This document shows, piece after piece, positions 1,167-63,914 of a stretch of DNA of 64,000 bases (positions are counted from its first letter, which is position 1; each line of letters starts with the position of its first letter). The DNA is from Bacteroidota bacterium (GTDB lineage Bacteria; Bacteroidota; Bacteroidia; Flavobacteriales; Flavobacteriaceae). The notes beneath the pieces are model-generated. The model was not told the origin of the DNA. It searched no databases and saw nothing but the letters and a program-made list of their open reading frames with translations. The DNA lies in the NCBI GenBank assembly GCA_043778105.1, contig JAYWGV010000061.1:5179-69178 (forward strand), read 5' to 3'. A program made the position numbers and the translations under genes.

Positions 1167-1232
1167 GGAGTTGAAAAAGCTTTAAAAAAATTAAATCCGA
1201 AATATAGTAAAAAATTGAATTGAAAGATAATT

Positions 1233-1341
1233 CCCTAGCCCTGATGGAAGGGAAAATCCTTTTTTTTAATCAATTGCCACGGGTTTAAACCCGTGGCAAT
1301 TGATTAAAAAAAAGATTGGAATGACAGCAGGAAATAGCTTC
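1233..1341 (+). repeat. family-A structured repeat, copy 1
   Basis: CCCTAGCCCTGATGGAAGGGAAAATCC-T8-AATCAATTGCCACGGGTTTAAACCCGTGGCAATTGATT-A8-GATTGGAATGACAGCAGGAAATAGC. It lies between the fabG stop and the VWA gene start. Confidence 0.8.
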
Positions 1342-1363
1342 TTAAAAATCTTAAATCTAATGA

Positions 1364-2110
1364 CTAAGTCAGCATTCCACCATCGACATTCAAGACTTGT
1401 CCTGTTACATAAGCGCTCATATCTGACGCCAAAAATACGCAAACATTGGCAACATCTTCGCAAGTTCCGCCACGTTTTAATGGAATTGCATCTCGCCAAC
1501 CTTGCACAACATCGTCGTTTAGTTTGGCTGTCATTTCGGTTTCGATGAATCCGGGTGCGATTGCGTTGCAACGAATATTGCGTGAACCAAGCTCAAGAGC
1601 GACCGATTTTGTAAAACCAATTACTCCAGCTTTTGAGGCCGCATAGTTGGTTTGTCCAGCGTTTCCTTTGACTCCGACAACCGAACTCATGTTGATTATT
1701 GAGCCTGAACGTTGTTTCAAGAATGTTTTTTGAATGGCTTTGGTCATATTAAAAACCGATTTTAGGTTAACGTTTATGACTTTGTCAAAATCTTCTTCGG
1801 ACATTCTCATTAAAAGATTGTCTTTGGTAATTCCAGCATTATTAATTAAAATATCTACAGTTCCAAATTCAGTTAATACTGCTTCTACAAATGTTTGTGC
1901 TTCGTTAAAATCGGCTGCGTTGGATTGATAACCTTTGGCTTTTATGCCTAAAGCATTCAATTCGGTTTCGAGTTGATTAGCCGATTCGACTGATGAACTG
2001 TATGTAAATGCTACATTTGCACCATGTTTTGCAAAAACTTCTGCGATTCCTTTTCCAATTCCGCGACTTGCACCAGTTATTATTGCAGTTTTTCCTTCTA
2101 GTAATTTCAT
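1364..2110 (-). CDS. fabG: 3-oxoacyl-ACP reductase (SDR)
   Basis: TGASRGIG Rossmann motif, NNAG, and the YAASKAG catalytic motif. At 248 aa it has typical FabG length. Confidence 0.9.
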   Translation of the reverse strand: MKLLEGKTAIITGASRGIGKGIAEVFAKHGANVAFTYSSSVESANQLETELNALGIKAKGYQSNAADFNEAQTFVEAVLTEFGTVDILINNAGITKDNLLMRMSEEDFDKVINVNLKSVFNMTKAIQKTFLKQRSGSIINMSSVVGVKGNAGQTNYAASKAGVIGFTKSVALELGSRNIRCNAIAPGFIETEMTAKLNDDVVQGWRDAIPLKRGGTCEDVANVCVFLASDMSAYVTGQVLNVDGGMLT

Positions 2111-2809: not shown

Positions 2810-3910
2810 TTATATTTTAGATTTTATTTTTTTTGCTAACTTTTTAAAATCACTACCTTGAATGTTAAAAGTAAAAAATCCCTCTTCATGTTCTTTGTAT
2901 ATGATTTCACCAGTTTTGCCATTCACAACTTCAAAAAATTTCTGATTATTTATTTTAACATATCTTAAATAATAGAAATTTTTTTCTGAAAATATTTTTT
3001 CATCTAAATCTTTTTCAGATATAAATTCAAATTTATAAATATAATCTTCGAAAAGATTGCTAATCTCTTTTTCTGATTTTTGTTCGTCTTCAATTTTAAC
3101 AGGTTTGTATGTAGTTTTGTTATATTCAGGTATGAATAAAGTTTGTAGAGCCAAGTTTTTTAATTCATCAGTCGAAATTGGCTCTTGCATACCCATAAAC
3201 TCTTCGTTTGATATCAAATTATTAATTTTCTGAAAATTATTTTTTAAATACCCTAAAGTGTAGTTTTTATAGATTCTAGAATTAAAAACTTCTTTAATCC
3301 GATCATTCTCATATTTTGAATTTTTTAGTGTATCTCTACGAGCAGTGGAGAAACTACCGAAATTTGAGGAGATTCCACTATAAAAATATTCAACACGACC
3401 ATCTTTAAATTTATTATTAATTTTTTGTATAAATTCAGTATTAACAAAAAAATGTATTGCTCCAATATTGATTCTTGTGCTATAAATGAGATCGCTATAC
3501 GGTTTATTTGCTATTTTCAATTTTTCGATTTTTGTTTTATTTTTTTCATAATCATAAAAAAAGAACGTAATATCGTTGAAACTTTCAAAAACACGTCCAA
3601 CATCTCTGCAATAAGCACGTAACAGAGCGAAAGAGTACGTACCTTCTAAATAATCATCTAATTTGAAATCATATCTTGAAACAATTTTATAAGGAGTTAC
3701 TGTCCAATATTCCTTTAATATTTTATCATATTGATCTTTATGATAAACATCTGATAAAACAAAAATTGTTGTTGTTGATTTGAAATTTTTGAAAGTTTCT
3801 AAATCAAACTTTTTTAAATTTCTATCAACGTTTGAGCTTACAGTAACTTGTGCACCTACTCTTATCAAAAATAATAACAATAAGCAAATTAAAAATATTT
3901 TTTTTTTCAT
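2810..3910 (-). CDS. secreted hypothetical protein
   Basis: 366-aa ORF with an N-terminal signal peptide (MKKKIFLICLLLLFLIRVGAQ). I recognised no family motif. Confidence 0.6.
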   Translation of the reverse strand: MKKKIFLICLLLLFLIRVGAQVTVSSNVDRNLKKFDLETFKNFKSTTTIFVLSDVYHKDQYDKILKEYWTVTPYKIVSRYDFKLDDYLEGTYSFALLRAYCRDVGRVFESFNDITFFFYDYEKNKTKIEKLKIANKPYSDLIYSTRINIGAIHFFVNTEFIQKINNKFKDGRVEYFYSGISSNFGSFSTARRDTLKNSKYENDRIKEVFNSRIYKNYTLGYLKNNFQKINNLISNEEFMGMQEPISTDELKNLALQTLFIPEYNKTTYKPVKIEDEQKSEKEISNLFEDYIYKFEFISEKDLDEKIFSEKNFYYLRYVKINNQKFFEVVNGKTGEIIYKEHEEGFFTFNIQGSDFKKLAKKIKSKI

Positions 3911-6206: not shown

Positions 6207-6773
6207 TTATTCTTTAACGCGTTCCATATAATTTCCAGAAGTTGTGTCTATTTTGATTTTGTCTCCTTCATTAATAAATAAAGGAACATTTACTTGAGCA
6301 CCAGTTTCTACAGTTGCAGATTTTGTTGCATTTGTAGCTGTATTTCCTTTAATTCCTGGTTCGGCATAGGTTACTTGCAACACTACTGATGCTGGCATAT
6401 CGACAGAAATTGGCAAATCGGTTTCGGTATTAATGCTAACCATAACGCTTTCTCCTTCTTTTAATAAATCTGGAGCATCAAGAATTGCTTTATTTAAGGA
6501 AATTTGCTCATAAGATTCAACATTCATAAAATGAAATAAATCGCCTTCTGGATAAAGAAATTGAAATTTATGATTTTCTACCCGAATTTCTTCGATTTTA
6601 TGCCCAGCCGAAAAAGTGTTGTCTAAAACTCTACCGTTAGACAAACTTCTTAATTTTGTTCTTACAAATGCTGGACCTTTTCCAGGTTTCACATGTAGAA
6701 ATTCTACTATTTTATATATATCATTATTGAACTTGATACATAATCCATTTTTAATATCTGATGTAGATGCCAT
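6207..6773 (-). CDS. efp: elongation factor P
   Basis: IVEFLHVKPGKGPAFVRTKLR is the canonical EF-P motif. Length is 188 aa. Confidence 0.93.
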   Translation of the reverse strand: MASTSDIKNGLCIKFNNDIYKIVEFLHVKPGKGPAFVRTKLRSLSNGRVLDNTFSAGHKIEEIRVENHKFQFLYPEGDLFHFMNVESYEQISLNKAILDAPDLLKEGESVMVSINTETDLPISVDMPASVVLQVTYAEPGIKGNTATNATKSATVETGAQVNVPLFINEGDKIKIDTTSGNYMERVKE

Positions 6774-6891: not shown

Positions 6892-7669
6892 CGCCAGTAT
6901 ATCCTTTCATTATTCCTCTGGACGAATTTCTAATAAAATCTATAATTTCGTCACGCTCTGGAGTTGCTTCCATTTCTGCTTCTATTATTCCGACTGCTTG
7001 TGATGTATTGTAATTTTTTTGGTATAAAATTCGGTAAATATTTTGAATCTCGGTAATTTTCTCGGTTGTAAAACCTCTTCTTCTTAATCCAACCGAATTT
7101 ATTCCTACATAAGATAATGGTTCTTTAGCTGCTTTTGTAAATGGCGGAACGTCCTTTCGAACCAATGAACCGCCTGAAATCATAGCATGATCGCCAATAT
7201 GAATAAATTGATGTATTGCTGCTAAACCGCCAATTACGGCATATTTTCCGACAATAACGTGACCAGCAAGCGCCACACCATTTACAATTATTGAATTATC
7301 GCCAATGTGACAATCGTGTGCAATGTGTGCTGTTGCCATGATTAAGCAGTTGTTGCCAATTGTTGTTTGACCAGATGCAACTGTTCCTCTATTAATCGTT
7401 ACGCATTCGCGAATTGTTGTATTGTCACCAATTACTGCTAATGAATCTTCGCCACCAAATTTTAAATCCTGAGGAACGGCTGATATTACTGCACCTGGAA
7501 AAATATTACAATTTTTGCCTATTCGTGCGCCTTCCATAATGGTTACATTTGATCCAATCCAGGTTCCATCGCCAATTACTACATTATTATGAATAGTCGT
7601 AAAAGGTTCAATAACAACATTTTTGGCAATTTTTGCGCCTGGATGTACGTATGCTAATGGTTGATTCAT
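6887..7669 (-). CDS. lpxA: acyl-ACP:UDP-GlcNAc O-acyltransferase
   Basis: Hexapeptide repeats and an LpxA C-terminal helical domain. Length is 260 aa. Confidence 0.9.
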   Translation of the reverse strand: MNQPLAYVHPGAKIAKNVVIEPFTTIHNNVVIGDGTWIGSNVTIMEGARIGKNCNIFPGAVISAVPQDLKFGGEDSLAVIGDNTTIRECVTINRGTVASGQTTIGNNCLIMATAHIAHDCHIGDNSIIVNGVALAGHVIVGKYAVIGGLAAIHQFIHIGDHAMISGGSLVRKDVPPFTKAAKEPLSYVGINSVGLRRRGFTTEKITEIQNIYRILYQKNYNTSQAVGIIEAEMEATPERDEIIDFIRNSSRGIMKGYTGG

Positions 7670-7671
7670 AA

Positions 7672-7706
7672 TTTCAGATTTCAGATTTCAGATTTCAGAT
7701 TTCAGA
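7672..7706. repeat. perfect tandem heptamer (TTTCAGA)x5
   Basis: Five exact units, ending 3 nt from the lpxA start codon. Confidence 0.9.
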
Positions 7707-7740
7707 TATGATATATTGAAATTTAAAATCTAAAATTAAT

Positions 7741-11560: not shown

Positions 11561-11635
11561 GACTTTTAGATACTAGACTGATAGATTTTAGACGATAACT
11601 CAAAGAATCTAAATTCTAAAATCTAAACTTTAAAA
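11561..11635. repeat. heptamer-phased tract with inverted halves
   Basis: A GACTTTTA GATACTA GACTGATA GATTTTA GACGATA block faces a TCTAAAT TCTAAAA TCTAAAC block. TAGATTTTAGA (11582-11592) is the exact complement of TCTAAAATCTA (11615-11625). Confidence 0.7.
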
Positions 11636-11643
11636 TTAATTTT

Positions 11644-13698: not shown

Positions 13699-13792
13699 AT
13701 TTAATTGATTTTATCGATTTTGCAATATTTTTAATTGTTTGTTATGTTTTGTTTAAAATCATTTCAAATATGCGAAAAACAATCCTAAATAA

Positions 13793-13870
13793 CCCTGATT
13801 GAAGGGAAAATCCTTTTAAATTTGCTTTTTTGGCAAATTTAAAAGATTGGAATGAAAAGCAGGAAATGCC
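13793..13870 (+). repeat. family-A structured repeat, copy 2
   Basis: Same arms as copy 1 (CCCTGATTGAAGGGAAAATCCTTTT ... AAAAGATTGGAATGAAAAGCAGGAAATGCC). The apical hairpin is different: AAATTTGC-TTTTTT-GGCAAATTT. Confidence 0.8.
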
Positions 13871-13943
13871 AAACCTGAAAAAGCCTAAACATTCGTTTCA
13901 GAAAATTTACAAAATTAATACTAATGATTTATTGAATAAGTTG

Positions 13944-32067: not shown

Positions 32068-32274
32068 GATTTTAGATTTTAGATTAACGATTTTAGATTT
32101 CAGATTATAAACTGAAAACGAAACTGTGACTGAAAACTGAACACTAAATAACTGAACACTGAAAACTGAACACTAAATAACTGAACACTGAATACTAAAT
32201 ACTGAACACTAAATACTGAATACTAAATACTGAACACTGAACACTAAACACTGCCTACTGAACACTGAAAACTA
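32068..32274. repeat. ~205-bp degenerate heptamer array
   Basis: Six GATTNNA units are followed by about 22 units of type (G/A)AA(C/T/A)ACT, such as GAACACT, AAATACT, GAATACT and GAAAACT. Confidence 0.85.
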
Positions 32275-33190: not shown

Positions 33191-34141
33191 TTGAACGAAA
33201 GAACAATCGAGCTCATCGACATCGCTCCAAAAGAATTTTGGGGCGCACAAGACACTCATCTTGAAACAATTAAAAAGTATTATCCGAAATTAAAAATTGT
33301 TGCACGCGGCACAACAATAAAGGTTTTTGGCGAAAAAGAAGAATTAAACGAGTTCGAAACTCGATTTCAACGAATTATGTTGCATTTTACTCGATATAAT
33401 AATATCGACAATAATGTAATAGAACGTGTTATTTTAACCGATTCTCGCGAAGTTCAAAAAATGGCCGATTCTGATCGAATTTTGGTTCACGGAGTTGGCG
33501 GAAAAATCATAAAAGCAATGACACCCAACCAGCAATTGTTAGTCGATACGATTAATAAATGCGATATGGTTTTTGCCGTTGGTCCAGCTGGAACTGGAAA
33601 AACTTACACAGGTGTCGCAATGGCAGTCAAAGCCTTGAAAGACAAAACTGTCAAGAAAATTATTTTGACACGACCAGCAGTAGAAGCAGGCGAAAATCTC
33701 GGTTTTCTACCAGGAGATATGAAAGAGAAACTCGATCCATACATGCAACCATTATATGATGCATTGCGTGACATGCTGCCCAACGAAAAACTCGAAGATT
33801 ACATTTTAAAAGGCATTATTCAAATTGCGCCATTAGCATTTATGCGTGGTCGAACGCTCGATAATGCATTTGTAATTCTTGACGAAGCACAAAACACAAC
33901 CCATTCGCAAATGAAAATGTTCTTGACCAGAATGGGGAAATCGGCCAAATTTATGATCACGGGAGATCCAGGGCAAGTCGATTTGCCACGACGCACAATT
34001 TCTGGATTGAAAGAAGCACTTTTAGTACTAAAAGACATCGAAGGAATCGGAATTATTTATCTAGACGATAAAGACATAGTACGCCACCGTTTGGTCAAAA
34101 AAGTAATCGATGCTTACAAACAAATTGAGAATAACGATTAA
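33191..34141 (+). CDS. phoH: PhoH-family ATPase
   Basis: Walker A GPAGTGKT, ILDEAQN, and GDPGQVD. The apparent start codon is TTG. Confidence 0.88.
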   Translation: MNERTIELIDIAPKEFWGAQDTHLETIKKYYPKLKIVARGTTIKVFGEKEELNEFETRFQRIMLHFTRYNNIDNNVIERVILTDSREVQKMADSDRILVHGVGGKIIKAMTPNQQLLVDTINKCDMVFAVGPAGTGKTYTGVAMAVKALKDKTVKKIILTRPAVEAGENLGFLPGDMKEKLDPYMQPLYDALRDMLPNEKLEDYILKGIIQIAPLAFMRGRTLDNAFVILDEAQNTTHSQMKMFLTRMGKSAKFMITGDPGQVDLPRRTISGLKEALLVLKDIEGIGIIYLDDKDIVRHRLVKKVIDAYKQIENND

Positions 34142-34179
34142 AATTTTTTAGAAACGAAAGATTAGGCATTTTCAGCAAT

Positions 34180-34275
34180 GGCATTTCCCGCTGCTATTCC
34201 AATCTTTTTATAAATTACCACGGCTTTAATGCCGTTGTAATTTATAAAAAGGATTTTCCCTTACATCGGGGTTAA
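34180..34275 (-). repeat. family-A structured repeat, copy 3
   Basis: Reverse orientation. The arms are conserved, and the apical hairpin is ATAAATTACCACGGC-TTTAAT-GCCGTTGTAATTTAT. Confidence 0.8.
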
Positions 34276-34323
34276 TCGAGATTAATTTTCGCATTTTTTT
34301 ATGTCTTAAAATTAAATTAATAT

Positions 34324-34350
34324 CCTAACAGGTTTTCAAAACCTGTTAGG
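34324..34350. repeat. 27-nt perfect palindrome
   Basis: CCTAACAGGTTTT-C-AAAACCTGTTAGG, followed by TATTTTTAT. It could act as a + strand terminator. Confidence 0.7.
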
Positions 34351-34360
34351 TATTTTTATA

Positions 34361-34423
34361 AAAACTAAAAACTAAAAACTAAAAACTAAAAACTAAAAAC
34401 TAAAAACTAAAAACTAAAAACTT
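34361..34423. repeat. perfect tandem heptamer (AAAACTA)x8 plus one partial unit
   Basis: Exact tandem units, about 130 nt upstream of the amylase ATG. Confidence 0.9.
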
Positions 34424-45890: not shown

Positions 45891-46034
45891 ACCACGAATT
45901 TCACAAATTTTCACTAAGATTTTGTTTCAAATTGTAAAATTATATTAATTTAAAAATTCGTTAAATTTCTTGACAATTTCAATTTGTGTTAATTTGTGAA
46001 ATTTGTGGCTAAAAAAAGCTGTGAAATTCGTGGA
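45891..46034. repeat. CACGAATTTCAC inverted-repeat element, copy 2 (composite, three arms)
   Basis: ACCACGAATTTCACAAATTTTCACTAAG ... AATTTGTGTTAATTTGTGAAATTTGTGG ... CTGTGAAATTCGTGGA. It fills the glgE-mak spacer. Confidence 0.7.
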
Positions 46035-46047
46035 CAAAAAAAAGTGT

Positions 46048-47676
46048 ATGAAAGATATTAAAATTAACGAAGATGCATTTCAAAATCCATTTGTTTTCAA
46101 AACAGATTGGAAAGTCGCATTCGAGGACCAAGAATTTGTAAAAGTTTTTTCTTCGGATATTCTAGAAAGTTATATTGTTAACAAACGTTGGTATGGAGGA
46201 AAAGCCAGTACTTTGAAGTATATCGAAGTCGTTGATTTTTTCAAAATGACTTCTAAAAAAAATACCTATTATGGTGTCTTGCTAGAAGTAAATTTTAAAG
46301 AAGCATTTTATCAGCATTATTTTATGCCAATTTCGTTTATGAAAGAAGACGAATTGGACACGAATACTGTAATTGCTCCAGTAAAAATGAACGGAATTGA
46401 AGGTTTTCTTGTTGATGCTTTGCACCAAGAAGATTTCAAGAAACTTTTATTTGATAAAATTGTAGCATCAGGCGAAAAAACCAACGACAAATTAAAATTC
46501 CATAAAGGACAGAAACTTATTGACAAAGAATATGTTTCGTCAAAATTTATGGGCGTCGAACAAAGCAACACCTCAATAATTTATAACGGAACGTTGGTCT
46601 TGAAAATTTTCCGTCGCATATATATTAGTACAAATCCAGATTATGAAATTTCACGTTTCTTGACCGAACGAATGGATTTCAAATCATCGCCAGCTTATAC
46701 TGGAAGTATCAGTGTTGAGTTATCTGAGGGAAAAATTACACTTGGATTAATGCAACAATTGGTTCCAAATCAAGGCGATGCTTGGGAATTTATGCTAAAA
46801 GAAGTCGATGGAATTTTTGACAACTTGAAAACCAAGAAAATCAAAATCCCAAAATTGCCTCAAGTCGAAATGTTTAAACGGCTAAAAATCAATGAAGTTC
46901 CTCACGAAATTATCGATTGGGCAGGTTTAAGTATTTTTATGCGCATTCATACATTGGCAACTCGAACCGCCGAAATGCACATTGCTTTAGGCAGCGACAT
47001 TCACGATACAGCCTTTACACCAACGACTTATAACGGCGATTACACCGTTTGGTTAAAAAATAGATTGACTTATCAGTTTCAAAATCGACTGAATATTCTA
47101 GAAAACAATCTTCATAAATTGGACGGATTAGCATTAGAACTAGCAAATAAATTTCTAGATAATAAAAAAGAAATCCGAAAACTATTCCTAGATTTCGATT
47201 GGACAAAAATGAAATCCGAACGAATACGAATTCACGGCGATTATCATTTAGGACAAGTTTTGGTTTCTGGAGACGATTTTTGGTTGCTCGATTTCGAAGG
47301 CGAACCAGAATCGACAATCCGTGACAGAAAAGTAAAACAACCACCATTAAAAGACGTTGCAGGAATGTTTCGCTCATTTCATTATTGCATTTACGCAACA
47401 ATTTTCAATAACAAAGACAAATATCCATACGAACAAGAAGAATTATTTGCTGCGGGCGAAGTTTTATTCAAATATTTTGTTGGCGTTTTCTTGAGAACTT
47501 ACACAGATGTTGCCCAAGCAGGCAACCTGAATATTGGTTACAAAAACGAAATCGATTTTTTCTTAAAATATTGTATTCTCGAAAAAGCAGTTTACGAATT
47601 GGGATATGAGTTGAATTCGCGACCACGTTGGGCAGTGATTCCATTGACAGGAATTGCTAGTATTATGGAGTATTAA
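46048..47676 (+). CDS. mak: maltokinase (Mak/Pep2-like) with N-terminal cap domain
   Basis: Kinase catalytic loop IHGDYHLGQVL and the DFEGEP metal-binding motif. The real start is probably ATG 46048, because the first 15 track codons lie in a repeat element. Confidence 0.75.
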   Translation: MKDIKINEDAFQNPFVFKTDWKVAFEDQEFVKVFSSDILESYIVNKRWYGGKASTLKYIEVVDFFKMTSKKNTYYGVLLEVNFKEAFYQHYFMPISFMKEDELDTNTVIAPVKMNGIEGFLVDALHQEDFKKLLFDKIVASGEKTNDKLKFHKGQKLIDKEYVSSKFMGVEQSNTSIIYNGTLVLKIFRRIYISTNPDYEISRFLTERMDFKSSPAYTGSISVELSEGKITLGLMQQLVPNQGDAWEFMLKEVDGIFDNLKTKKIKIPKLPQVEMFKRLKINEVPHEIIDWAGLSIFMRIHTLATRTAEMHIALGSDIHDTAFTPTTYNGDYTVWLKNRLTYQFQNRLNILENNLHKLDGLALELANKFLDNKKEIRKLFLDFDWTKMKSERIRIHGDYHLGQVLVSGDDFWLLDFEGEPESTIRDRKVKQPPLKDVAGMFRSFHYCIYATIFNNKDKYPYEQEELFAAGEVLFKYFVGVFLRTYTDVAQAGNLNIGYKNEIDFFLKYCILEKAVYELGYELNSRPRWAVIPLTGIASIMEY

Positions 47677-47708
47677 TTTTTTTTTGAATTTATCTTGAAT
47701 TTATTTCA

Positions 47709-47820
47709 GGAGCTATTTCCCGCTTTCATTCCAATCTTTTTTATTTTTCAATTGCCACGGGTTTAAACCCGTGGCAATTGAAAAATAAAAAAGGATTTTC
47801 CCTTCAATCGGGGCTAGGGC
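47709..47820 (-). repeat. family-A structured repeat, copy 4
   Basis: Reverse orientation. Its apical hairpin core CAATTGCCACGGGTTTAAACCCGTGGCAATTG is identical to copy 1. Confidence 0.8.
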
Positions 47821-47874
47821 ATTGGCTTTCAAAAGAAATTTTATTTTTAAAATGAAATTCAATTTTTAAAATTT

Positions 47875-47899: not shown

Positions 47900-48190
47900 A
47901 TGACAACAATCACAATTAACGGAAAATCAAAAGCTGCTAAAACTTTATTAGATTTAGCCAAAATTCTTGCTGTAAAAAATAGTGGAATTAGCGTTGAAAA
48001 TGATAATGATTTACAAGATGAAATTGTTGCAAACAATATTAAAGGTTATCCAATTTCAAAAAATGAATATATAAGTTTAGTAAATGAAGCCGATGAAAGA
48101 ATCTCCAATGGAATTTATACATCTTCCGAAGATTTAGATGAAGAAATTAAAACTTGGGATGATCAAAGTAGAAAAAGTAAAATGGGATAA
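47900..48190 (+). CDS. antitoxin-like small protein (partner of the ParE/RelE-type gene)
   Basis: 96 aa. It has its own TACATTTG -7 box 18 nt upstream and overlaps the toxin reading frame by 32 nt. Confidence 0.55.
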   Translation: MTTITINGKSKAAKTLLDLAKILAVKNSGISVENDNDLQDEIVANNIKGYPISKNEYISLVNEADERISNGIYTSSEDLDEEIKTWDDQSRKSKMG

Positions 48191-50378: not shown

Positions 50379-50381
50379 TTT

Positions 50382-50428
50382 TTAATTCTACCCTGTCAGG
50401 GTTTTAAACCCTGACAGGGTAGAATTAA
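50382..50428. repeat. 47-nt perfect palindrome after glgB
   Basis: TTAATTCTACCCTGTCAGGGTTT-T-AAACCCTGACAGGGTAGAATTAA. The arms are 23 bp, and no U-tract follows on either strand. Confidence 0.8.
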
Positions 50429-50492
50429 ATAATCAACAATAACGTTTGCGTAAATGTTAATAAAATTCAAATAGAAAACTTACAATAAAATG

Positions 50493-55976: not shown

Positions 55977-56023
55977 AAAATAATTTTTAAAGTTTGTTAT
56001 TGTTGTACTATAAATGTTTCAAA

Positions 56024-56052
56024 TCTATAAGTCTAAAATCTAAAGTCTAAAA
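56024..56052. repeat. heptamer-phased tract
   Basis: TCTATAAG TCTAAAA TCTAAAG TCTAAAA, overlapping the stop of ORF 56047..57105. Confidence 0.6.
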
Positions 56053-63848: not shown

Positions 63849-63914
63849 GACTTTTAGACATTAGACTATTAGACATTAGATTATAGACATTAGATTTACA
63901 GACGTCAGATTTAA
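63849..63914. repeat. heptamer-phased tract
   Basis: GACTTTTA GACATTA GACTATTA GACATTA GATTATA GACATTA GATTTACA GACGTCA GATTTAA, directly after the porQ stop. Confidence 0.7.

Follow-up and report, generated by a model that had tools for sequence, protein, structure and literature searches.

The ERIC/IRU and REP/BIME sequences of Enterobacteria are short imperfect palindromes that lie between genes. A genome has many of them, pointing either way and frequently placed right after a stop codon; mRNAs include them by co-transcription, and insertions at fixed internal points account for their size variants. The PATEs, which derive from IS200/IS605, and the attC sites of integrons are likewise imperfect hairpins with a variable centre, recognized as single strands, and conserved unpaired bases mark one of their two strands.

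The Flavo-1 family (RF01705) was introduced by Weinberg et al. (2010, Genome Biol 11:R31), who rated it a probable RNA ("y") with covariation and a variable-length stem, did not consider it cis-regulatory, counted 239 representatives, and commented only that almost all of them occur in Flavobacteria. In a review, it appears among the most abundant of the sRNA families recovered computationally by homology, with no function given. From the outside inward, the RF01705 architecture comprises a 3-bp outer stem, a bulged A, 2 bp, a 3x3 purine loop, a 2-bp helix, a second 3x3 purine loop, 4 bp, a bulge, and an A/U-rich stem of variable length. The transcriptome of Flavobacterium psychrophilum (Guerin et al. 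2021) is the sole experimental look at the family that we found in the literature. In that study, 128 Flavo-1 occurrences were not accepted as bona fide RNA features; the copies were described as "indistinctly sense or antisense" of transcribed regions, with many outside them, and no functional clue was offered.

We analyzed a stretch of flavobacterial DNA of 64,000 nucleotides (the window), in which the original prediction had described a four-copy element and had named Flavo-1 as a family to search for. A search of the 64 kb with Rfam cmscan at the gathering threshold (42 bits for RF01705) returned exactly four matches, all of them to Flavo-1 and none to any other family: c1 at 1233-1338 (+), 59.1 bits; c2 at 13787-13870 (+), 66.2 bits; c3 at 34180-34277 (-), 43.1 bits; and c4 at 47712-47819 (-), 60.1 bits (E value, 1.3e-10). 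Each of the four covers model positions 1-76 of RF01705. In a permissive Rfam scan, psRNA14, mir-4889, and Phe leader also touched the copies, far below threshold; these were rejected as generic long-hairpin matches. A covariance model of our own recovered the same four and no extra ones from the window, and the R1 model scored c4 at 88.5 bits and c3 at 70.2 bits. The 17-nt 5' arm, GAAGGGAAAATCCTTTT, occurs four times in the window at no more than one mismatch, while 0 of 100 dinucleotide shuffles of the window contained four matches, even at three mismatches, and chance was rejected as an explanation. Read on a common strand, the consensus of c1 to c4 is CC(C/T)G-AU(U/G)-(G/U)AAGGGAAAAUCCUUUU-hairpin-AAAAGAUUGGAAU(G/A)...C(G/A)GG. 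As for the taxon, identical proteins are encoded by contigs of GCA_043722475.1 as well as by metagenome contigs, and among the matches listed, the titles of loci that carry these arms name Flavobacterium, Kaistella, and Halpernia, in keeping with an occurrence in the Flavobacteria/Bacteroidota. Because all four sites exceed the curated RF01705 threshold, they belong to a known family, and it is essentially certain that they are Flavo-1 copies. The presence of four copies at the predicted places was thus confirmed by both cmscan and the covariance model, while the implied novelty is not upheld because Flavo-1 has been in Rfam since 2010; the finding is a rediscovery of a family that Rfam already annotates at these sites.

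The repeat units proved longer than the limits originally given for them. Alignment of c1 with c4 extends c4 to 47704-47832 (-), and alignments likewise place c1 at 1220-1346 (+), c2 at 13766-13908 (+), and c3 from about 34141 to 34298 (-). In the cmscan alignment to the Flavo-1 consensus, the 5' arm of c4 (47787-47811, -) reads CCG-A-UU-GAAGGGAA-AAUC-CU-UUUUUU and holds both paired segments and a purine-rich loop strand; the 3' arm, AAAAGAUUGGAAUGAAAGCGGG, lies at 47719-47740 (-). Between the arms, the apical module (47736-47793) is a perfect palindrome of 29+29 nt, CTTTTTTATTTTTCAATTGCCACGGGTTT/AAACCCGTGGCAATTGAAAAATAAAAAAG, with 100% complementarity, and its core is also present in c1. The 3' tail of c4, AAAUAGCUCCUGAAA (47704-47718, -), corresponds to the GCUCC plus A-run that is conserved in the flank profile of 116 copies and lies beyond the segments that the Rfam model pairs.

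Two subfamilies are represented in the window. c1 belongs with c4, carries the same apical palindrome, and is 88% identical to it over 129 nt in pairwise alignment; the tips of the two are identical over 32 nt, and their loci are unrelated and 46 kb apart. c2, in which the apical hairpin is short and the 3' tail longer, groups with c3 (73% identity over 159 nt), in which the apical hairpin has one mismatch. Three entirely different, perfectly paired apical hairpins had been reported; instead, c1 and c4 share one, the tip of c3 (ATTRCNACGG...CCGTGGYAAT) is a diverged homologue of it whose single mismatch is A.G on the model strand, and that of c2 is a short relative. The claims made for the stems, by contrast, were correct: c1 and c2 have CCCTG/CAGG as the outer stem, where c3 and c4 have CCCCG/CGGG; at the inner pair, c1 and c3 have G-C, and c2 and c4 have U-A. 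The RF01705 architecture is present in all four cmscan alignments with a single departure, the 2-bp middle helix between the purine loops, which is G.U plus G.A in c1 to c4 and is therefore not a canonical helix. Both strands form very stable folds: the model strand of c4 folds with a minimum free energy of -47.6 kcal/mol (z = -9.1), and the opposite strand with -46.6 kcal/mol (z = -7.8).

A larger sample was obtained by scanning GTDB genomes with the exact two-arm pattern. This yielded at least 107 loci of 8 kb each, mostly from Flavobacterium, with some from Kaistella and Halpernia and a few from MAGs binned elsewhere. The window and the loci listed together provide a sample of at least 116 copies, and an alignment was made of 112 sequences from about 70 genomes. 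The 5' arm is invariant in the 112 copies, among the matches listed; this invariance is partly ascertainment, because most of the 112 copies were fetched by the exact two-arm pattern, which includes that arm. In the flank profile of the 116 copies among the matches listed, conservation spans from CCUAGCC at position -13 to the GCUCC plus A-run tail at about +27, and none was detected upstream of -13 or past about +27.

The 112-sequence alignment, again from the matches listed, supports the fold by covariation. Paired cells amount to 91.9%, compared to 76.9% in shuffles, and the covariation score is 0.379, compared to 0.086 in shuffled alignments (0 of 500 reach 0.379) and at most 0.093 when the partners are slid. 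All four Watson-Crick combinations occur at pair 9-108 (CG in 42 copies, UA in 32, AU in 15, and GC in 9), pair 13-104 is AU in 55 copies, GC in 37, and UA in 11, and double changes are present at eight pairs. The middle helix is noncanonical (G.U plus G.A) in 110 of the 112 listed copies of the window subfamily; it covaries in diverged copies (GCC/GGC, ACC/GGU, AC/GU, and AU/AU), which were found by covariance model and so were unselected for exact arms. The Flavo-1 fold is real. Several additional pairings were considered and rejected. In the long-tailed copies, neither a larger conserved fold nor an outer closing helix gains support from RNAalifold, which supports the main hairpin alone, and the mutual information between the flanks reflects subfamilies rather than pairing. 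A 3-bp AGC/GCU pairing had a single supporting double change (TAACC with GTTTC), which is ambiguous when the tail of c2 and c3 is aligned to the short tail. By eye, only about 7 of 20 copies have an alternative helix in which a downstream UCCUG pairs with the 3' strand of the outer stem.

We then considered where the copies lie. As predicted, all four in the window are intergenic; they are spaced 12 to 20 kb apart among housekeeping genes. The 3' end of c4 is 36 nt past the stop codon of an open reading frame at 46003-47676 (+), c1 is 26 nt past the stop codon of an SDR gene at 1364-2110 (-), and the 3' side of c3 adjoins the stop codon of phoH at 33191-34141 (+). Each of these three copies is antisense to the gene named, and the Rfam model strand of each runs opposite to the co-directional flanking genes. 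The fourth, c2, is located between a divergent pair, an M13 peptidase gene (-) and a MtaB/RimO-like radical-SAM gene (+). Its orthologue in Flavobacterium flavipigmentatum (L005) is 77 nt upstream of the same radical-SAM gene, the proteins being 89% identical; in both loci a -7 box, TAnTTTTGCA, stands between the element and the start codon, and a canonical terminator abuts the 5' end of the L005 element. Since c2 and its orthologue are both upstream of the promoter box, the element is conserved there in a spacer outside the mRNA.

In the larger sample, open reading frames were called by simple long-ORF heuristics. Among the matches listed, 1 of 116 copies falls inside an open reading frame, and relative to the flanking frames, 39 copies are tandem and antisense, 26 tandem and sense, 15 convergent, and 14 divergent. 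In 49 of the 65 tandem contexts listed, the copy is nearer to the preceding stop codon than to the next start codon (P = 5e-5), with median distances among the matches listed of 29 nt from the stop and 104 nt to the start, whichever the orientation. The Bacteroidota -7 box, TAnnTTTG, was found within 77 nt upstream of 8 of the 116 copies listed; with both strands considered, the counts are 8 and 7 of 116, with no excess over control strands.

Position just past stop codons, at a median of 29 nt among the matches listed, is what would be expected if the elements terminated transcription of the preceding genes or served them as terminator-like hairpins at the 3' end. In addition, the opposite strand carries AUUUUCCCUU after the hairpin, and a simple scan calls c2 terminator-like. 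However, an intrinsic terminator consists of a GC-rich hairpin followed by a U-tract, and in Flavo-1 the order on both strands is U-run, hairpin, A-run; no U-tract follows the model-strand hairpin, and the U-rich stretch on the opposite strand is weak. The same genomes do use canonical terminators made of a GC hairpin and a T-run, such as the one directly upstream of the L005 copy. In F. psychrophilum, moreover, transcripts read through the element within operons at loci 0001 and 0006, and the 3' segment of proC runs about 90 nt beyond it (Guerin et al. 2021). Given the read-through and the order of the runs, the element is not an efficient terminator. We reject this explanation as very improbable, in agreement with the view in the original prediction that these are not ordinary terminators.

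A further question is whether the elements are genes, or parts of transcripts, that act as RNA. On this explanation, the purine-loop strand would give a structured RNA, either a protein-binding or catalytic RNA or a cis-acting element of untranslated regions, and copies that point the wrong way or fall outside transcripts would be nonfunctional by-products. Several observations fit. Covariation is strong in every stem. On one strand only, the model strand, both sides of the internal loops are conserved and rich in purines; the loops are of the GNA/GNA type, like tandem sheared G.A motifs in RNA. The model strand is thermodynamically favored in 105 of the 116 copies listed, a count that is not of independent cases, since the arms are shared; among the same listed copies, G.U-type mismatches outnumber A.C-type mismatches by 24 to 12, again in copies with shared arms. 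Compensatory changes are found between orthologues, from A-U to U-A in the outer stem (L070 and L069) and from GCC/GGC to ACC/GGU (L156 and L163). These changes at orthologous loci suggest selection for pairing in place, for which a purely selfish or neutral repeat would have no need; gene conversion could mimic such selection. The one-strand loops, the G.U of the middle helix, the excess of G.U-type mismatches, the better folding of the model strand, and the compensatory changes keep a strand-specific function in play, be it as RNA or as single-stranded DNA.

The published transcriptome bears on both sides of this question. Of the first seven F. psychrophilum loci in the data of Guerin et al. 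(2021), three have an antisense copy and two a sense copy, and at the other two the copy is not within a transcribed region. The two sense copies are inside a 5' region or in the independent transcript Rfp7, so that some copies are indeed expressed in sense, and Weinberg et al. rated the motif "y" with covariation. At the three antisense loci, the operon or 3' segments are expressed and the model strand is near background in the liquid-culture samples; at loci 0001 and 0006, specifically, the model strand is at background and it is the opposite strand that is expressed (Guerin et al. 2021). Probe signals of F. psychrophilum Flavo-1 copies rise together on agar, as do those of tRNA and of many low-level features, and cross-hybridization is likely. 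Against an RNA gene also stand the absence of a promoter box, of any conserved upstream element, and of a terminator downstream, the fact that tandem antisense copies (39) are at least as common as sense copies (26) among the matches listed, the antisense placement of three of the four window copies, the position of c2 and its orthologue upstream of a promoter, and the lack of a functional clue for Guerin et al. We consider a strand-specific RNA function for a subset of copies a serious rival, albeit a doubtful one. Of the two options that the original prediction had offered, a structured RNA or a REP-like element, a strand-specific RNA gene is the weaker: copies without a promoter box, in both orientations and antisense in three of four cases in the window, have sense, antisense, and untranscribed counterparts in the published transcriptome. 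Orientation independence, the lack of a promoter, and the post-stop position, together with the gain, loss, and swapped tips described below, suggest that the label "Gene; sRNA" is misleading.

Comparison with relatives indicated that copies come and go. In 80 syntenic loci of related flavobacteria (LpxC/FabZ 81 to 90% identical; 1.11 Mb), 8 copies were found, versus 4 in the 64-kb window; in loci known to hold one copy, about 16 further copies were found in 0.74 Mb. The c1 site, in the spacer between the SDR gene and the next gene, is empty in 16 related genomes. Conversely, two relatives (L111 and L112) have a copy in the SDR leader, just after a conserved -7 box, where there is none in the window or in 13 fully read related loci. 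L119 is filled and L124 has 19 nt at the same site, and from this pair it follows that the A-run belongs to the element. Filled and empty sites are too diverged for exact insertion junctions to be placed, and only the right-hand limit, including the A-run, was located. Many copies are old, each shared at one locus by four or five species, and no polymorphism was seen within species, every same-species contig examined keeping its copies. Short Logan contigs break inside c4, as they do at repeats. Copies are singletons, except that two occur, kilobases apart, in only 5 of the 107 8-kb loci listed.

The hairpin tip is an exchangeable module. Of 14 orthologous sets, 8 include at least one species in which the arms are unchanged but enclose an unrelated apical hairpin, as with ATCCGCCGCGGCGGAT and ATTGTTTTTTCTACAAT in L010 and L050. 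A small number of tip types turn up repeatedly, at unrelated loci and in unrelated genomes alike, and one 30-nt tip insert is found both ways round (L076 versus L081 and L086). Palindromes of the tip type are also free-standing: in the window beside c3 (34323-34351) and after glgB (50379-50431), and elsewhere in L008, in L049, where three stand in a row beside a Flavo-1 copy, and in L105. In L040, a palindrome of a free-standing type serves as the tip of a Flavo-1 copy, and L051 has a related one, by eye. Tips that are swapped, recurrent, and free-standing imply that exchange between copies is frequent. Such exchange could also homogenize the arms.

Gain and loss between relatives, along with the near identity of c1 and c4 at unrelated loci, raise the possibility of an actively mobile, nonautonomous element, in which a folded single strand of DNA, the purine-loop strand, would be the substrate moved in trans by an HUH/Y1-type enzyme, much as in REP/RAYT systems or IS200/IS605-derived palindromic elements. 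The element forms one imperfect hairpin in which the asymmetric loops are conserved and the stems covary, a form that suits this explanation, as does the lack of target-site duplications and of terminal inverted repeats beyond the hairpin; to our knowledge, IS200/IS605 and REP elements also lack both. RayT-annotated genes have been reported in the related genus Chryseobacterium. However, an all-versus-all blastp comparison of 896 open reading frames from the 107 loci listed found no Y1 or other transposase, and no other gene, recurring beside the copies, a screen that a single-copy gene could escape. The copies are singletons instead of inverted doublets, the GTAG box is absent, and no matches to Flavo-1 were found in viral contigs. 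Orientation shows no bias with respect to the local GC skew of the 8-kb loci (50 positive and 59 negative among the matches listed; P = 0.56), in a test of low power that is confounded by gene strand. The age of many copies and the uniformity of same-species contigs likewise speak against ongoing movement, which we consider unlikely.

Fragments of insertion sequences, their terminal repeats, or a classical cut-and-paste MITE would also be multicopy, intergenic, and palindromic, and contigs would break in them as the short Logan contigs do inside c4. These explanations are contradicted by the flanks and by the stems. No consistent flanking direct repeat of at least 5 nt was detected, the best pair of offsets accounting for 7 of the 116 copies listed; no transposase was found beside any copy; conservation stops at -13 and about +27; and the stems covary instead of presenting one fixed terminal sequence. 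We reject this origin as scarcely credible.

The four window copies are best understood as members of a scattered DNA repeat and not as four small-RNA genes. The explanation that we favor, at about even odds (a probability of roughly 0.5), is that Flavo-1 is a REP/ERIC-like dispersed intergenic hairpin repeat of Flavobacteriia that is transcribed passively and whose purine-loop strand is read by a putative factor. It builds on what was observed directly in the copies, namely, their identity, structure, covariation, position bias, and modular tips, the absence of an orientation bias, and gain and loss between genomes. The unit is an imperfect palindrome of 80 to 160 nt whose short outer stems are kept paired by compensatory change. 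Its two internal loops are rich in purines and invariant on one strand, and it also has an A/U stem, a tip that can be exchanged, and the GCUCC plus A-run tail. It has neither a promoter nor a terminator of its own, sits in either orientation, and lies mostly about 30 nt past a stop codon, or else follows a terminator and precedes the next promoter. Copies are present or absent at equivalent sites of relatives and exchange sequence with one another, spreading probably by copying and gene conversion. According to this explanation, transcription would be passive, the element forming part of a neighboring mRNA that determines which strand is represented, and a very stable hairpin in that mRNA could affect its processing or decay. 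The conservation of purine-rich loops on one strand implies a factor that reads a folded single strand; such a putative protein may recognize the purine-loop strand as folded single-stranded nucleic acid.

It is conceivable, although we propose it tentatively, that Flavo-1 exemplifies a Bacteroidota-wide class of nonautonomous hairpins that are not sRNAs and are copied as a folded single strand by a putative enzyme. In that event, the two purine loops may be the recognition signature, and the apex may be a docking site that captures or exchanges free-standing palindromes centred on GGTTT/AAACC, such as those at 34323-34351 and 50379-50431, while old copies might have been domesticated as mRNA-structure elements. 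The "orphan RNA motif" of 2010 would then be a new REP-like system of nested, modular palindromes. The weight of the present finding is modest and lies in the rank of Flavo-1 among the most abundant of the Rfam "sRNA" families, in the evidence that this label is misleading, and in the consequence for annotation. If our favored explanation is correct and Flavo-1 is truly REP/ERIC-like, flavobacterial annotations list around a hundred spurious sRNA genes each.

Among described systems, the Flavo-1 family itself is the closest. c1 to c4 have its stems, bulged A, two purine-rich loops, and variable apical stem, come from the same taxon, and are multicopy and intergenic, as is the family. They differ from RF01705 in the G.U plus G.A middle helix of the window subfamily, in a repeat unit that outruns the model with its GCUCC plus A-run tail and the longer 3' tails of c2 and c3, and in a genomic context that does not support the Rfam type "Gene; sRNA." PATEs and attC sites resemble Flavo-1 as imperfect hairpins with conserved unpaired bases on one strand, a variable centre, and no target-site duplication. 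Flavo-1, however, has neither the LE/RE pair of a PATE nor, in the 107 loci listed, a tnpA or tnpB gene close by, and it lacks the cassette array and the integrase that accompany attC; the R''/L''...L'/R' cores of attC, with GTTRRRY, are absent from c1 to c4, the sequences of which were inspected in full. The terminal inverted repeats matching an insertion sequence and the target-site duplication that define a MITE are lacking as well.

The comparison with REP elements is divided. A REP is a palindrome of 20 to 40 nt with a 5' GTAG box, whereas the Flavo-1 unit is 80 to 160 nt long with CCUAGCC as its 5' flank; REPINs and BIMEs are inverted doublets, whereas Flavo-1 copies stand singly; and, where a REP system has a cognate RAYT (Y1 transposase) gene flanked by its repeats, no RAYT-like family recurs as a neighbor in the 107 loci listed, in a screen that could miss a single-copy gene. 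With neither GTAG nor the doublet organization, true membership in REP/RAYT fails. The original alternative of a structured RNA or a REP-like element thus holds in that the fold covaries and the behavior is REP-like, but not as regards GTAG and doublets. Flavo-1 has no sequence relationship with ERIC or REP, and its purine loops and strong covariation are more like those of an RNA motif than of a typical REP. It shares with them an intergenic location, many copies, either orientation, and a frequent position 3' of genes (49 of the 65 tandem contexts listed), and by this analogy its resemblance to REP/RAYT appears to be functional, not familial.

Perfect palindromes with GGTTT(N)AAACC at the center, such as TCCTAACAGGTTTTCAAAACCTGTTAGGT, stand alone outside Flavo-1 at 34323-34351 and 50379-50431 in the window, as well as in comparison loci from other genomes: L008 (6337-6365), L105 (6930-6964), and L049, in which three of them, spaced about 80 nt apart, lie within 7226-7416. 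The apical hairpins of the window copies c1 and c4 and of the Flavo-1 copies in L034, L040, and L083 are of the same type as these free-standing palindromes, as is, judged by eye, that of L051, and several of the palindromes are adjoined by a Flavo-1 copy. The GGTTT(N)AAACC palindromes may represent a second small family of palindromic repeats.

Other sequences lie within or beside some Flavo-1 copies. In two copies from different genomes (L051, 1857-1946; L112, 10731-10801 plus about 30 nt downstream), a small G+C-rich hairpin, CCTRYCTRCCGNCAGGCAGG, interrupts the 3' arm or tail and looks like one more tiny nested element. Two further copies (L011, 470-555; L073, 1783-1865), from different loci and different genomes, carry the same unrelated sequence, GGAGTTCAGTGAAYTTCRTTT, in place of the 5' outer stem, CCUAGCCCNGAU, which suggests a recurrent chimera of Flavo-1 with another repeat. 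An alignment of L119, L124, L168, and L138 shows another palindromic intergenic repeat, GTGATTTCTC...TCGAAATGACAA, at 2960-3010 in L119 and approximately 2660-2720 in L124; it lies in the spacer that, in L119, has a Flavo-1 copy as well.

The intergenic DNA of the window also holds many tandem arrays with a period of 7 nt, usually upstream of genes, at 1132-1165, 2153-2186, 7671-7707, 11606-11636, 32068-32106, 32129-32273, 34359-34422, 56021-56052, and 63854-63894. Their units include TAAAAAC (9 copies, 100% match), ATTTCAG (5.3 copies, 100% match), and ACTGAAC (20 copies), and related arrays are present in the orthologous spacers of relatives. Short tandem duplications occur at two sites in the vicinity of c4: a 19-nt unit, TTTAAAATGAAATTCAATT, is repeated 2.4 times at 47827-47872, between c4 and a small open reading frame (ORF; 47900-48190), and a 25-nt unit is present twice at 45995-46053, at the start of the ORF at 46003-47676.

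The 96-aa gene adjoining c4 is carried by three short Logan/ENA contigs (L196, L197, and L198) that end 33 to 82 nt into the element, as would be expected if assemblers break at the Flavo-1 repeat; MAG assemblies may therefore underrepresent its copies. In the orthologous loci L052, L063, and L103, the Flavo-1 tail (...AATTGCTGCTCCTAAAAAAA) is followed, about 15 to 25 nt downstream, by a -7 box (TATTTTTG or TACTTTTG). The TTG of the tail lies about 19 nt upstream of this box, so the promoter of the gene that follows may take its -33 part from Flavo-1.

Copies in L033, L040, L047, L061, L077, L099, L106, and L068 (2102-2192) have the same Flavo-1 arms and different flanks; only two of them, in L040 and L061, score high enough to pass the Rfam threshold. 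In L033, a MAG contig binned as Bacteroidota, two matches to Acido-Lenti-1 (RF01687), barely over threshold, lie on the minus strand (3434-3478 and 6496-6540), one of them upstream of the Flavo-1-like copy, at a distance of about 90 nt, within an 860-nt stretch devoid of genes and rich in other repeats. Inspected by eye, the different-flank copies show a putative outer helix, GCGTTA...TAACGC, and, on the 3' side of the main hairpin, a putative mini-hairpin with the sequence GGCCGAAGGC or one like it, which suggests a form with a three-way junction. Weinberg's original Flavo-1 alignment also contains copies of this type.
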